DNA of 64,000 nucleotides from Eledone cirrhosa (Eukaryota), in assembly GCA_964016885.1 (NCBI GenBank), contig OZ024740.1, positions 289,788,001-289,852,000 of the forward strand, read 5' to 3'. The notes below the pieces were generated by a model. That model worked only from the letters and a program-made list of their open reading frames with translations, was not told where the DNA came from and did not search any database. Both the position numbers and the translations under genes were made by a program. Below, piece by piece: positions 23,371 through 31,768 of this stretch. The first letter of the stretch is position 1, and every line of letters begins with the position of its first letter.

Positions 23371-24321
23371 TATAATAGAATAATCGAGTATCGGAAAATC
23401 AGCTCACGAATTTACGATAAACAAATCCGAAATGAGTGGCAGAGGGCTCAATAATTCAGATAAATCAGAGCTATAACTATCGTTAAGATACCAACACACA
23501 AAGATTATGCCTAAATCACCCGTGCAGCCGAAAAATAACGACCAGGAAGATTCGGGTCACTCAGATAAAATATCAATAAATTAATAATTTATATGAATGT
23601 AAAAACTTACCCGGACCCACTAGAAAGGTGGTAAATCTAGCTTCTTGGGTTTCTGCTATTCCTTAATCCGCCCCCTATCAGCCCACATAAAAATATATAA
23701 GACTTCTAGGGAGAGGAGGGACCGGAACAACTTTATCAACGGGCCATGTCCGACGAATGTAGAAGTTAACTATAGCTAGACGCACATGGAGTCCAGCAAG
23801 GGAGATAACCTCTATATTCGCGAAAGATAATCGGTAATGTGGAATACACATATCGAATAAGAGTGCTCGATAGACATGTTAAAATAAACAGGAGCTATTC
23901 ATCATTCAATAGAATCGACAAAAAATGAACAATAAAATTAACTGGTCAATAGCTATGTCTAGAGCTAAATATAATAGAATAATCGAGTATCGGAAAATCA
24001 GCTCACGAATTTACGATAAACAAATCCGAAATGAGTGGCAGAGGGCTCAATAATTCAGATAAATCAGAGCTATAACTATCGTTAAGATACCAACACACAA
24101 AGATTATGCCTAAAATCACCCGTGCAGCCGAAAAATAACGACCAGGAAGATTCGGGTCACTCAGATAAAATATCAATAAATCAATAATTTATATGAATGT
24201 AAAAACTTACCCGGACCCACTAGAAAGGTGGTAAATCTAGCTTCTTGGGTTTCTGCTATTCCTTAATCCGCCCCCTATCAGCCCACATAAAAATATATAA
24301 GACTTCTAGGGAGAGGAGGGA
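23371..24321 (-). mobile_element. Partial-tandem (~350-bp repeat, ~600-bp period) HHR element, family C, in (TA)n
   Basis: 23373-23722 is repeated at 23972-24321. Homologous to 31212-31768, with tail remnants at ~24620-24830 and ~30950-31110. Confidence 0.85.
23609..23744 (-). ncRNA. Large type I hammerhead ribozyme, U3-A8 variant
   Basis: gcccg UUGAUAA a-guuguucc...ggaauagc-a GAAA ccca..cuaga..ucuag uggg UC cgggu. Confidence 0.75.
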
Positions 24322-25345
24322 CATATATATACATACATATATACAAATATATATATATATAAATATACACATATATATATATATGTATATATAGATATAC
24401 GTATACATATATACACACATATATATATATATACATATATATATACACATATATATATATATATATATATATATATATATATATATATATATATATACAT
24501 ATATATATATACATATATATACATATATATATACATATATATATATACATATATATACATATATATATAAACATATATATATATATATATAGAGATATAT
24601 ACATATATATATATATATATATTTTGTTTTGACCTGTTTAGCTTGATTTGCTTTTTGGCTTACGTGGTTAATGCTTTCTTGACAACCTTTTCAGTTTTGT
24701 ATGGCTTCTTAACACATTGTTTAGCTCTGGTTTTTAACTATTGAGCACTTTGTCAGTATCATTTCTGATTTTTGCGTCTCGCTTCGCTTTTCCTGCCCGC
24801 CGAAAATGTGATTCTCGCTGAATCTTTATTTATATATTTATATATATATATATATATATATATATATATATATATATATATATATATACATATATATAAC
24901 ATATATATAGTGCAAATTTAGACGGGAACAAAACAGAGAGGCAGAAAAATAAAGGTTAGTATATATTTATATATATATATATAAATATATATAGTATAGA
25001 TAAATATATATAGTATAGATTTATATATATATATATAAATCTATACTATAAAGCTGACGGCCGTATTTAAGTAACAAACTTTCCGCCAAACTGCTGGACC
25101 AAATTAGCATCCTCGATGTAAATTTTTCCAAGTAAAAAAGTGAGGATATTTTCGCGTACTGAATTTTGTTAAAAATATTAAAGACATTATTTAAATATTC
25201 ACTTCTTTAAAATTCTTAAATGACAACACTTCCGGTTATACAACATTCCTAACGTCTTCACGAACCAAAGTATCATCTTCCTGTTTTCTTTCGGTTGCAA
25301 CGTTTTTCGAAATATTTACTTCTGCGCTCACAGATTGATTTATAT

Positions 25346-25396
25346 AGTTTCAGAAGATCCCGTTAAGGATGAAAGCAGCGATTCTTTGCTTAAACT
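25346..25396 (+). ncRNA. Hammerhead-like motif with CAGAAGA core (diverged family B copy)
   Basis: agttt CAGAAGA tcccgttaaggat GAAA gcagcgattctttgc TT aaact. Confidence 0.55.
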
Positions 25397-27888: not shown

Positions 27889-30360
27889 GGCGGTGATTGT
27901 AATGGAGGTCGTCGTGGTGTTGTTCATGGAAGTAATGTTAGTTGTGTAGGTGGCTTTGCTGTTTTGGCGGTGATTGTAGTGGAGGTCGTCGTGGTGTTGT
28001 TCATGGAAGTAATGTTAGTTGTGTAGGTGGCTTTGCTGTTTTGGCGGTGATTGTAATGGAGGTCGTCGTGGTGTTGTTCATGGAAGTAATGTTAGTTGTG
28101 TAGGTGGCTTTGCTGTTTTGGCGGTGATTGTAGTGGAGGTCGTCGTGGTGTTGTTCATGGAAGTAATGTTAGTTGTGTAGGTGGCTTTGCTGTTTTGGCG
28201 GTGATTGTAATGGAGGTCGTCGTGGTGTTGTTCATGGAAGTAATGTTAGTTGTGTAGGTGGCTTTGCTGTTTTGGCGGTGATTGTAGTGGAGGTCGTCGT
28301 GGTGTTGTTCATGGAAGTAATGTTAGTTGTGTAGGTGGCTTTGCTGTTTTGGCGGTGGTAGTAATGGAGGTCGTCGTGGTGTTGTTCATGGAAGTAATGT
28401 TAGTTGTGTAGGTGGCTTTGCTGTTTTGGCGGTGATTGTAATGGAAGTCGTCGTGGTGTTGTTCATGGAAGTAATGTTAGTTGTGTGGGTGGCTTTGCTG
28501 TTTTGGCGGTGATTGTAGTGGAGGTCGTCGTGGTGTTGTTCATGGAAGTAATGTTAGTTGTGTAGGTGGCTTTGCTGTTTTGGCGGTGATTGTAGTGGAG
28601 GTCGTCGTGGTGTTGTTCATGGAAGTAATGTTAGTTGTGTAGGTGGCTTTGCTGTTTTGGCGGTGGTAGTAATGGAGGTCGTCGTGGTGTTGTTCATGGA
28701 AGTAATGTTAGTTGTGTAGGTGGCTTTGCTGTTTTGGCGGTGATTGTAATGGAGGTCGTCGTGGTGTTGTTCATGGAAGTAATGTTAGTTGTGTAGGTGG
28801 CTTTGCTGTTTTGGCGGTGATTGTAGTGGAGGTCGTCGTGGTGTTGTTCATGGAAGTAATGTTAGTTGTGTAGGTGGCTTTGCTGTTTTGGCGGTGATTG
28901 TAGTGGAGGTCGTCGTGGTGTTGTTCATGGAAGTAATGTTAGTTGTGTAGGTGGCTTTGCTGTTTTGGCGGTGGTAGTAATGGAGGTCGTCGTGGTGTTG
29001 TTCATGGAAGTAATGTTAGTTGTGTAGGTGGCTTTGCTGTTTTGGCGGTGATTGTAATGGAGGTCGTCGTGGTGTTGTTCATGGAAGTAATGTTAGTTGT
29101 GTAGGTTGCTTTGCTGTTTTGGCGGTGGTAGTAATGGAGGTCGTCGTGGTGTTGTTCATGGAAGTAATGTTAGTTGTATAGGTGGCTTTGCTGTTTTGGC
29201 GGTGATTGTAATGGAGGTCGTCGTGGTGCTGTTCATGGAAGTAATGTTAGTTGTGTAGGTGGCTTTGCTGTTTTGGCGGTGATTGTAATGGAGGTCGTCG
29301 TGGTGTTGTTCATGGAAGTAATGTTAGTTGTGTAGGTGGCTTTGCTGTTTTGGCGGTGATTGTAATGGAGGTCGTCGTGGTGTTGTTCATGGAAGTAATG
29401 TTAGTTGTGTAGGTTGCTTTGCTGTTTTGGCGGTGGTAGTAATGGAGGTCGTCGTGGTGTTGTTCATGGAAGTAATGTTAGTTGTATAGGTGGCTTTGCT
29501 GTTTTGGCGGTGATTGTAATGGAGGTCGTCGTGGTGCTGTTCATGGAAGTAATGTTAGTTGTGTAGGTGGCTTTGCTGTTTTGGCGGTGATTGTAATGGA
29601 GGTCGTCGTGGTGTTGTTCATGGAAGTAATGTTAGTTGTGTAGGTGGCTTTGCTGTTTTGGCGGTGATTGTAATGGAGGTCGTCGTGGTGTTGTTCATGG
29701 AAGTAATGTTAGTTGTGTAGGTGGCTTTGCTGTTTTGGCGGTGATTGTAATGGAGGTCGTCGTGGTGTTGTTTATGGAAGTAATGTTAGTTGTGTAGGTG
29801 GCTTTGCTGTTTTGGCGGTAATTGTAATGGAGGTCGTCGTGGTGTTGTTCATGGAAGTAATGTTAGTTGTGTAGGTGGCTTTGCTGTTTTGGCGGTGATT
29901 GTAATGAAGGTCGTCGTGGTGTTGTTCATGGAAGTAATGTTAGTTGTGTAGGTGGCTTTGGTGTTTTGGCGGTGATTGTAGTGGAGGTCGTCATGTTGTT
30001 GTTCATGGAAGTAATGTTAGTTGTGTAGGTGGCTTTGCTGTTTTGGCGGTGGTAGTAATGGAGGTCGTCGTGGTGTTGTTCATGGAAGTAATGTTAGTTG
30101 TGTAGGTGGCTTTGGTGTTTTGGCGGTGATTGTAGTGGAGGTCGTCATGTTGTTGTTCATGGAAGTAATGTTAGTTGTGTAGGTGGCTTTGCTGTTTTGG
30201 CGGTGATTGTAATGAAGGTCGTCGTGGTGTTGTTCATGGAAGTAATGTTAGTTGTGTAGGTGGCTTTGGTGTTTTGGCGGTGATTGTAGTGGAGGTCGTC
30301 ATGTTGTTGTTCATGGAAGTAATGTTAGTTGTGTAGGTGGCTTTGCTGTTTTGGCGGTGG
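27889..30360. repeat. 77-bp minisatellite array, ~32 copies
   Basis: The unit ggcggtgattgtaatggaggtcgtcgtggtgttgttcatggaagtaatgttagttgtgtaggtggctttgctgtttt starts at 27889, 27966, 28043 and so on. Confidence 0.97.
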
Positions 30361-31211
30361 TAGTTATGTTGGTAGTAACTATGGCGGATCGTTGTCATAA
30401 TGTTTTTTCTTGCTGACAATGGTTTTTGTGGTGGTGGTTGTAGTGGTGGTCATGTTATTGTTGATGGTGTATACATACATACATACATACATACATACAT
30501 ATACATACACACACACACATACATACATACACATACATACACACACACATATATATATATATATACACACACACACACATATATATATATATATATATAT
30601 ATATATATATATATGTATATATATATATATATATGTATATATATATATATATGTATATACATATATATATATACACATATATATATCGATATATATATAT
30701 GTATATATACATATATGTATATATATATATATATATGTACATATATATATATACATATATATATACATATGTATATATATATATATATACATATATATAT
30801 ATATATACATATATATATATATATATACATATGTATATATATATATGTATATATATATGTATATATATACATATGTATATATATATATATATATATATAT
30901 ATATATATATATATATATATATATATATATATATATGTATATATATATATTGTCAGCAAATAAAGATTTTTGATGAATTGAAGGCTTCTTTGTTTATTTT
31001 TTATATAATTTTTCGGCTCTGTTGGATAACATTGAGCTATATCTTATACTGTCATTTCTCTAATACGACGAGCGTGTTTAACTCTAATGCACTTAAGTAT
31101 TTTTATCTTATATATACATATATATATATATATATACATATATATATATGTATATATATATATGTATACATATATATATATGTATATATATGTATATATA
31201 TATATATATAA

Positions 31212-31768
31212 ACATAAATTATCGAGATTCGCATTTCGGTCCACGAAATAACGAAAAACAACCTCCGAGATGTGTGGCAAGTTCTCAATGATTCAGATGA
31301 ACCAGAGCTATAACAAACGTTAAAGGCCAAACACACTGAGACGATGGTTAAACAATCATTCGCATAGCCAAAAAAAACGATCAAGTAATTCGGGTATTGA
31401 AAATTTACCCGAACCCCTGGAAGGTTGGTAAAATCCAGTATATGGGTTTCTGTGGCTCCTAAATCAAGTACCGCCCGCTTACATAAATAATGTCAGGCTT
31501 CTGGTAAGATGATTGAACAAGGAAGCCACTTTCTCAACAGGTTTTAGTTCAATGTTAATACAAGGACTGACCATTGCTGACCCCACGTGGGGATCGGCAA
31601 GGGAGGCAACCCCTATATCAGGTAAATGAATTCAGTTGTGTATATTTTTGCAAGAATGCAAAAACATCACAAATCGAATAGAGTTCTCAACAGAAGGGTT
31701 AAAATTAACATAAGCTATTCATCAGTCAATAGAATTAACTAAAAAATCAAGAAAATTAACTGGTCAAT
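31212..31768 (-). mobile_element. Family C HHR element (diverged single unit) in (TA)n
   Basis: Colinear similarity to 23371-23950 (cagagctataac, acccg.accc, aaattaactggtcaata). Confidence 0.75.
31407..31542 (-). ncRNA. Large type I hammerhead ribozyme, U3-A8 variant
   Basis: accug UUGAGAA a-guggcuuccu...aggagccac-a GAAA ccc..cugga..uccag ggg UU cgggu. The helices covary with the 23.6-kb copy. Confidence 0.75.

Follow-up and report, generated by a model that had tools for sequence, protein, structure and literature searches.

Animal retrozymes without long terminal repeats (non-LTR retrozymes) are tandem repeats with type I hammerhead ribozymes (HHRs; PMC7229834) and have been argued to stem from Penelope-like elements (PLEs; bioRxiv 10.64898/2026.07.22.740005). 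PLEs carry HHRs of their own. Those of metazoan PLEs have a conserved G-C pair, a short helix I and a 7–8-bp helix II, while those of fungal and protist PLEs are monomers with a large helix III (PMC4209133). Here we describe family C, a repeat with an unusually large hammerhead that occurs twice in a 64,000-nt stretch of the Eledone cirrhosa genome (the window; GenBank assembly GCA_964016885.1, contig OZ024740.1, positions 289,788,001 to 289,852,000, forward strand). An earlier note on this DNA had seen in the two motifs a possibly undescribed hammerhead architecture. It overlooked the context that explains the motifs, namely a 600-nt non-autonomous tandem retroelement. The element is likely a non-autonomous PLE, or non-LTR retrozyme, with a type I HHR predicted to cut its own transcript. 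The motifs are an unusually large hammerhead-type fold in a known element type and do not form a new ribozyme class.

Both motifs lie on the minus strand, at the coordinates given in the earlier note, and were located by descriptor scan and folding:

23609..23744, minus: hammerhead motif 1, complete type I
23744-23740/23613-23609, minus: helix I of motif 1
23739 to 23733, minus: core of motif 1 from U3 (23739) to A9 (23733), with A8 at 23734
23732/23654, minus: A·A apposition of motif 1
23731-23655, minus: helix II of motif 1
23650-23615, minus: helix III of motif 1
23614/23613, minus: predicted cut of motif 1
31407..31542, minus: hammerhead motif 2, complete type I
31537 and 31532, minus: U3 and A8 of motif 2
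31530/31451, minus: A·A apposition of motif 2
31529-31452, minus: helix II of motif 2
31447-31413, minus: helix III of motif 2
31412/31411, minus: predicted cut of motif 2

The two motifs are homologous, with identity at 94 of 140 aligned columns (67%), and each reaches its minimum energy as a hammerhead three-way junction. Specifically, motif 1 folds at −50.8 kcal/mol (z −2.83; equalled by 2 of 200 shuffles) and motif 2 at −39.8 kcal/mol (z −2.11; equalled by 7 of 200). A generic descriptor scan of the window finds both as hammerheads with U3-A8, in which a single unpaired base flanks helix II on either side. Three helices surround the core and helix I is open, as in a type I hammerhead, an assignment supported by the fold and by covariation in helices II and III. 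The core residues C3 U4 G5 A6 N7 G8 A9, G12 A13 A14, A15.1-U16.1 and H17 are all kept, with U3-A8 as the 3-8 pair; at the cleavage site stands C (23614) in motif 1 and U (31412) in motif 2. A departure lies at 10.1-11.1, where A·A stands in place of the Watson-Crick pair and is followed by G-C. The U3-A8 core, the A·A apposition and the bulged helix III of the earlier note are thus present in both motifs.

Both helix II and helix III are long. The segment described earlier as a ~50-nt insert enclosed by helix II is not an unpaired insert; helix II is an irregular paired rod of 72–79 nt with 22–28 predicted pairs in 20 of 20 representatives (closing pair enforced). Helix III has 7–11 predicted pairs and a 5' bulge in the folded representatives. 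Family C resembles the minimal hammerheads of PLEs (PMC4209133), with their helix I of 4–5 bp, first stem of helix II of 7–8 bp, extra nucleotide after position 9 and conserved G-C, but those nearly lack helix III and are active as dimers. The hammerheads of fungal and protist PLEs are closer in helix III: they are likewise of type I, with a large helix III and no recognisable loop I–loop II contact, and are active as monomers (PMC4209133, Fig. 3). These PLEs are telomeric and lack an endonuclease, and neither the helix II rod nor U3-A8 with A·A appears in the available text of that paper. Rfam gives 0 matches at the gathering score in the whole window and, at E 5 around motif 1 (22900-24400), no hammerhead family, just low-complexity noise.

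Each motif belongs to its own insertion, with the following layout:

23370..24322, minus: insertion 1 (subfamily 1), a 5'-truncated stretch of some 1.6 units of a non-coding repeat of 600 nt, with (TA)n tracts on both sides
24209..24322, minus: second hammerhead copy, 5'-truncated, one unit (600 nt) upstream, missing helix I's 5' strand and the core's 5' half
23370..23420, minus: 3' end at which the element stops at a fixed point, some 240 nt past the cut site, running into (TA)n; putative start of reverse transcription
31210..31769, minus: insertion 2 (subfamily 2), some 560 nt out of a unit of ~585 nt, with (TA)n tracts on both sides

A covariance model built from 15 representatives matches the window three times, at motif 1, at motif 2 and at the truncated third copy (24203-24353). 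The units around motifs 1 and 2 are homologous. Because each motif has many copies of its own at 95–99% identity (1,440 first-look candidates for motif 1 and 2,274 for motif 2, with 40 scored for each), they represent two subfamilies and two insertions. A single 8-kb element bounded by both motifs is ruled out by these separate copies elsewhere and by the separate (TA)n flanks, and the single feature at 23609..31542 proposed earlier resolves into insertions at ~24322-23370 and 31769-31210.

Genome-wide, the unit is 580–617 nt long, carries one type I hammerhead and forms tandem arrays of up to 11 units, one of which consists of 11 units of 616–617 nt. The longest ATG-initiated open reading frame (ORF) in the subfamily-1 unit has 57 codons, which rules out that unit as protein-coding; subfamily 2 has a stop-free frame of 110–128 codons. 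With a single type I HHR in each unit of a non-coding tandem array, family C has the make-up of a non-LTR retrozyme. Like animal non-LTR retrozymes, family C is a low-GC repeat that ranges from monomers to multimers and has PLEs alongside (PMC7229834; bioRxiv 10.64898/2026.07.22.740005). According to the same sources, its unit length falls inside the 51–972 bp of vertebrate retrozymes and is about double the ~300 nt of invertebrate ones. It differs from them in its ~135-nt HHR with long helices II and III, in U3-A8 and in a helix I predicted to be self-blocked. Two unclassified runs of one sample contain the unit and the unit-to-unit joint and are uninformative on RNA. Metagenome collections gave 3 matches, none of which folds as a hammerhead, and viral contigs gave 0. 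Circular folding of whole units gave z of −1.9 to −6.3 for the sense strand and −0.8 to −4.3 for the antisense strand, which is not strand-decisive (6 units, 12 shuffles each).

The ends of the copies point to PLE-type insertion. In subfamily 1, 29 of 30 loci stop at a homologous point and enter the microsatellite; in subfamily 2, 28 of 30 do so and the other two continue into the next unit. This shared 3' stop lies 200–240 nt past the predicted cut. By contrast, the 5' ends are ragged: 30 copies chosen by their 3' end are 140–1,085 nt long, and 25 of them reach upstream past the cut site. A fixed 3' end, 5' truncation, partial-tandem copies and a microsatellite target together are the features of a non-autonomous PLE. 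The fixed 3' and ragged 5' ends would reflect target-primed reverse transcription of the hammerhead-sense strand from a fixed internal start. The anatomy fits that of an Anolis PLE, since its reverse transcription also starts internally; this PLE needs ORF sequence well downstream of the HHR cut, which lies 26 nt into the ORF (PMC11167929). By raw count over 30 copies (L111–L140), 7 begin 109–138 nt upstream of the cut site, close to where helix II has its 5' foot, and 5 have a length of about one unit.

To sample the family, the 3.0-Gb host genome was searched with a pattern that prescribes the core together with lower helix III and helix I's 3' strand, so that subfamilies with other helix I or III sequences fall outside the sample. 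The pattern has 1,904 matches, and its reversed control 0. The alignment comprises 30 loci from the pattern matches and 20 picked for diversity among the first 100, all on contig C1; the 16 clusters at 90% identity, minus one deletion variant, gave the 15 subfamily representatives. Across these, 87.3% of pairing cells are paired, versus 78.1% after shuffling and 30–47% in slid controls, and 0 of 500 shuffles reach the covariation score. Two-sided changes occur in 14 of 29 pairs, namely 5/6 in basal helix II, 4/9 in the two inner stems of the former insert, 5/5 in upper helix III, and 0/5 in helix I and 0/4 in lower helix III, the last two partly fixed by the pattern. The strong covariation seen earlier between two copies thus extends to a larger alignment for helices II and III, with 6 same-branch compensatory events on a tree of 44 sequences versus 0.59 expected. 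For helix I it does not hold, as the only changes there are one-sided G·U swaps. Identity among 28 representatives averages 68% and falls to 49% at the minimum; the core is invariant, position 7 free.

These changes bear on whether family C could be a satellite or miniature inverted-repeat transposable element (MITE)-like repeat that spreads as DNA and folds like a hammerhead by chance or as a relic. Its tandem arrays of near-identical units would suit such a repeat. A strand-specific fold with compensatory changes would not, nor would copies scattered across many contigs, fixed at one (TA)n end and ragged at the other, as left by target-primed reverse transcription, and we regard this origin as very improbable.

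Every complete copy collected by BLAST carries U3, A8 and the two apposed As (30/30 and 49/49), the second set being what remains of 59 subfamily-2 loci after exclusion of 10 truncated ones; these copies are too alike to reveal selection. In the pattern search of the genome, a version without both As has 0 matches and one with C3-G8 just 2 (L171 and L172). These belong to different subfamilies, and their change from U3-A8 to C3-G8 could be a chance double change in each. A G-C pair follows A·A in 44/44 sequences; therefore the conserved G-C is displaced outward by one mismatch. Of the cleavage triplets named earlier, GUC at 23614 and GUU at 31412 are both present, and GUU is a minority form, with GUC in 45 of 49 subfamily-2 copies.

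Precedents exist for the core. U3-A8 with an extra A after position 9 occurs in Schistosoma PLE ribozymes (Cervera and de la Peña 2014, PMC4209133). In Fig. S3 of the same paper, AGAAA stands in 1 of 56 rows, by column order that of a Cotesia bracovirus PLE; read from the extracted text, this row would probably give A·A. U·U is found at the same position by Perreault 2011 (PMC3088659) and in an axolotl retrozyme (PMC7229834). Of the 26 rows listed for Hydra-clade HHRs, 15 show a mismatch where helix II has its foot (14 U·U and 1 U·C; Craig et al. 2021, PMC8557442 File S2), and the PLEs of this clade target (TA)n (PMC8557442). Family C suggests that such a mismatch, be it U·U, A·A or A·G, recurs as a trait among ribozymes of PLEs that target (TA)n. 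Thus, of the undescribed architecture proposed earlier, a conserved large HHR variant stands, whereas its junction is an ordinary type I three-way junction, with precedents for U3-A8 and the foot mismatch. In the literature searched, no account was found of family C or of its combination of features, and published PLE hammerhead variants may hold precedents. What is new relative to that literature is the combination of long helices II and III, together with a CCCG sequence predicted to switch helix I off.

Could family C nevertheless be a new hammerhead subclass, in which A·A, U3-A8 and the internal loops of helix II form a tertiary contact that replaces the loop I–loop II contact? The invariance of both As in the collected copies, the absence of pattern matches without them and the rarity of those with C3-G8, the unpaired segments kept in helix II and loop III, and the failure of Rfam to match a hammerhead around motif 1 even at E 5 are consistent with this. 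However, every core feature has a precedent, conservation within the family could reflect shared descent, and no signal of a pseudoknot or extra pairing is found among 10,267 other column pairs in 44 sequences, a method to which non-canonical contacts are invisible. Pairing of loop III with sequence past the cut site was also considered and failed by eye in several subfamilies. A subclass of this kind is therefore, in our judgement, unlikely; it is compatible with the non-autonomous PLE described here and would add to it.

Downstream of each cut site lies a sequence complementary to the 3' strand of helix I:

23553..23558, minus: GACCCG, predicted off-switch of motif 1
31391..31396, minus: UACCCG, predicted off-switch of motif 2

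Although the spacer varies, 23 of 25 representatives retain CCCG, at +18 to +68. With 8 nt past the cut site, the predicted probability of helix I is at least 0.6 in 20/25; with 150 nt it is at most 0.05 in 23/25. The folding prediction gives CCCG a pairing probability of at least 0.5 in 18/23, and in subfamily 2 helix I is predicted to be out-competed within 15–25 nt of synthesis. Because the HHR is predicted to stay free in the circles of most animal retrozymes, in contrast to plant retrozymes and viroids (PMC7229834), this blocker would set family C apart from most animal retrozymes. The predicted block resembles that of plant LTR retrozymes and viroid-like circles, of 600–1,000 nt; in these, a complementary sequence blocks the monomer ribozyme (PMC7229834). 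Other than that, plant LTR retrozymes are unlike family C, with a type III HHR, an LTR structure and mobilisation by LTR retrotransposons.

These features suggest how the element might multiply. Read-through of tandem units would give a multimeric RNA, in which each hammerhead would fold during transcription and, through its stable helix III, may cut as a monomer after GUC. The product would be a unit-length RNA, possibly circularised. Once transcribed, CCCG would pair with the 3' strand of helix I and turn the ribozyme off, shielding circles or uncut multimers. The reverse transcriptase and GIY-YIG endonuclease of a PLE, most likely of the Hydra clade, would then nick (TA)n, and reverse transcription would run from the fixed internal site 200–240 nt past the cut, backwards through the cut site, over a variable length.

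The mobiliser is probably a (TA)n-targeting PLE of the Hydra clade. Family C shares (TA)n targeting and the mismatch at the foot of helix II with hammerheads of this clade (PMC8557442), and the clade's linker motif is present in PLEs of the host genome. In contrast to family C, the listed cores of the clade are all C3-G8, with short helices II and III and a pyrimidine-pyrimidine mismatch, and their elements encode protein (PMC8557442); no sequence similarity to family C was found in them. PLE endonucleases are abundant in the genome: a single query gave 55,923 first-look candidates. One young PLE bears the Hydra CxCX5C linker and, on its 3' side, an HHR-like motif. In this motif helix II measures 83 nt and the mismatch is A·G; in isolation the motif does not fold as a hammerhead. 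A GIY-YIG frame lies upstream of the motif in 7 of 15 loci:

L188 ~1535-1660, plus (in L188); G000:C9:29789114-29789314: HHR-like motif in the 3' untranslated region (UTR) of the young PLE

This PLE has 1,738 candidates, the best 40 of which are ~100% identical, and two alternative 3' ends ~145 nt apart.

Several points weigh against an element that multiplies through self-cutting. Helix I has only 5–6 bp, no loop I–loop II contact is found in the 44-sequence pairing scan, and because the search pattern fixed the core as well as lower helix III and helix I's 3' strand, their invariance in the subfamily alignment is partly built in. The pairing probability of the blocker is below 0.5 in 5/23, the blocker has no compensatory change, and its folding prediction stands without a shuffled control. 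A pile-up of 5' ends at the cut site, hinted at in 30 copies, of which 6 start at +4 to +15, is not borne out genome-wide: 34 reverse-strand matches fall around the cut site versus 30 in a control window, a count confounded by AT microhomology and by a control anchor that also picks up other subfamilies, and among the loci listed 0 of 20 start at +1 to +3. Comparison with one PLE family (30 loci), with 15 minimal-HHR loci and with the 3' UTR of one further PLE turned up no autonomous partner that shares sequence with the unit. Finally, for the Anolis PLE, the single PLE with a biochemical study, HHR cutting in vitro was dispensable for insertion and required added protein, and no read ended at the site (PMC11167929); because that insertion did not need HHR cutting, the ribozyme of family C may be weak.

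Taken further, the same PLE-derived element could have a weak or protein-dependent ribozyme, with copies made from uncut multimers, a fold that serves as a protein-binding or occasional processing signal, and no circles. The 25 of 30 copies that span the cut site, the 5' ends without clear excess there, the early loss of helix I predicted in subfamily 2, the poor cutting of metazoan PLE HHRs in vitro (PMC4209133) and the Anolis result all agree with this. However, a circular template accounts equally well for the spanning copies, the catalytic positions are kept across subfamilies 30–50% apart (partly by ascertainment), and a long covarying helix III, with two-sided changes in all five upper pairs, suits a ribozyme active as a monomer. 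We consider an element of this kind to have a small chance of being the right account and favour the retrozyme that cuts its transcript. A more far-reaching form of the latter combines a large-hammerhead subclass that is monomer-active through its long helix III, a new tertiary contact formed by A·A with the internal loops in the 25-bp helix II, a co-transcriptional off-switch, and surviving 600-nt circles as templates for Hydra-clade PLE enzymes. As a whole, this combination is conceivable but rather doubtful.

Family C provides a large natural alignment, with many subfamilies, of a hammerhead missed by Rfam. It also offers a test of a point left open in PMC7229834, namely how animal retrozyme circles escape self-cutting. 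If the large-subclass interpretation were true, such elements would be undercounted in animal genomes, because descriptor and Rfam searches would miss them. A new tertiary contact made by the long helix II, if real, would be relevant to ribozyme structure and engineering.

The window contains other hammerheads:

55282..55317, minus: damaged minimal hammerhead (C3 to A) with A·A and a palindromic helix III, outside family C
11277-11360, plus: type I hammerhead with C3-G8, a 49-nt helix II and a helix III of 4–5 bp (descriptor scan)

The earlier note had listed the first (as 55282-55316) as a partial motif with A·A. The A·A is there, but the motif belongs to an unrelated minimal-HHR family with 262 genome matches, in which C3 is present in 92 of 100 among the matches listed. 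A·A thus recurs in a minimal-HHR repeat unrelated to family C; the motif has no hammerhead fold in isolation. The second lies in a ~686-nt partial tandem repeat that ends in (TA)n (unit ~10900-11640), probably a second retrozyme family. A hammerhead motif with a 55-nt helix II at 23035-23121 (plus) has relatives that adjoin family C copies in L007 and L010 and occur also in L146. Small U3-A8 hammerhead motifs form an inverted pair at 6916-6960 (plus) and 6692-6736 (minus, damaged), an arrangement that resembles inverted 5'-truncated PLE insertions. At 21057-21106 (plus) lies another small hammerhead, of canonical type, whose helix I has 9 bp and whose helix III is minimal.

PLE remnants are also present. 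A broken PLE reverse transcriptase with a C-terminal GIY-YIG frame lies at 61561-62901 (minus) and belongs to a very abundant family with frames of up to 751 aa elsewhere, in which the descriptor finds no family-wide HHR in 30 loci. A PLE-like endonuclease fragment at 52046-52687, within 51790-53080 (minus), is flanked by A-rich direct repeats and has no Pfam match. Other repeats include a near-complete long interspersed nuclear element (LINE) at 35882-39066 (plus), with endonuclease and reverse transcriptase domains in two overlapping frames; a Helitron-like N-terminal domain of 525 aa at 57223-58800 (plus); a mariner transposase-like fragment, seen by eye, at 5333-5827 (minus); and a short interspersed nuclear element (SINE) near 55400, which we take to be octopod-like. 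Between the two family C insertions, at ~27890-30400, lie about 33 copies of a 77-nt unit with 96–100% identity and a strong strand skew.

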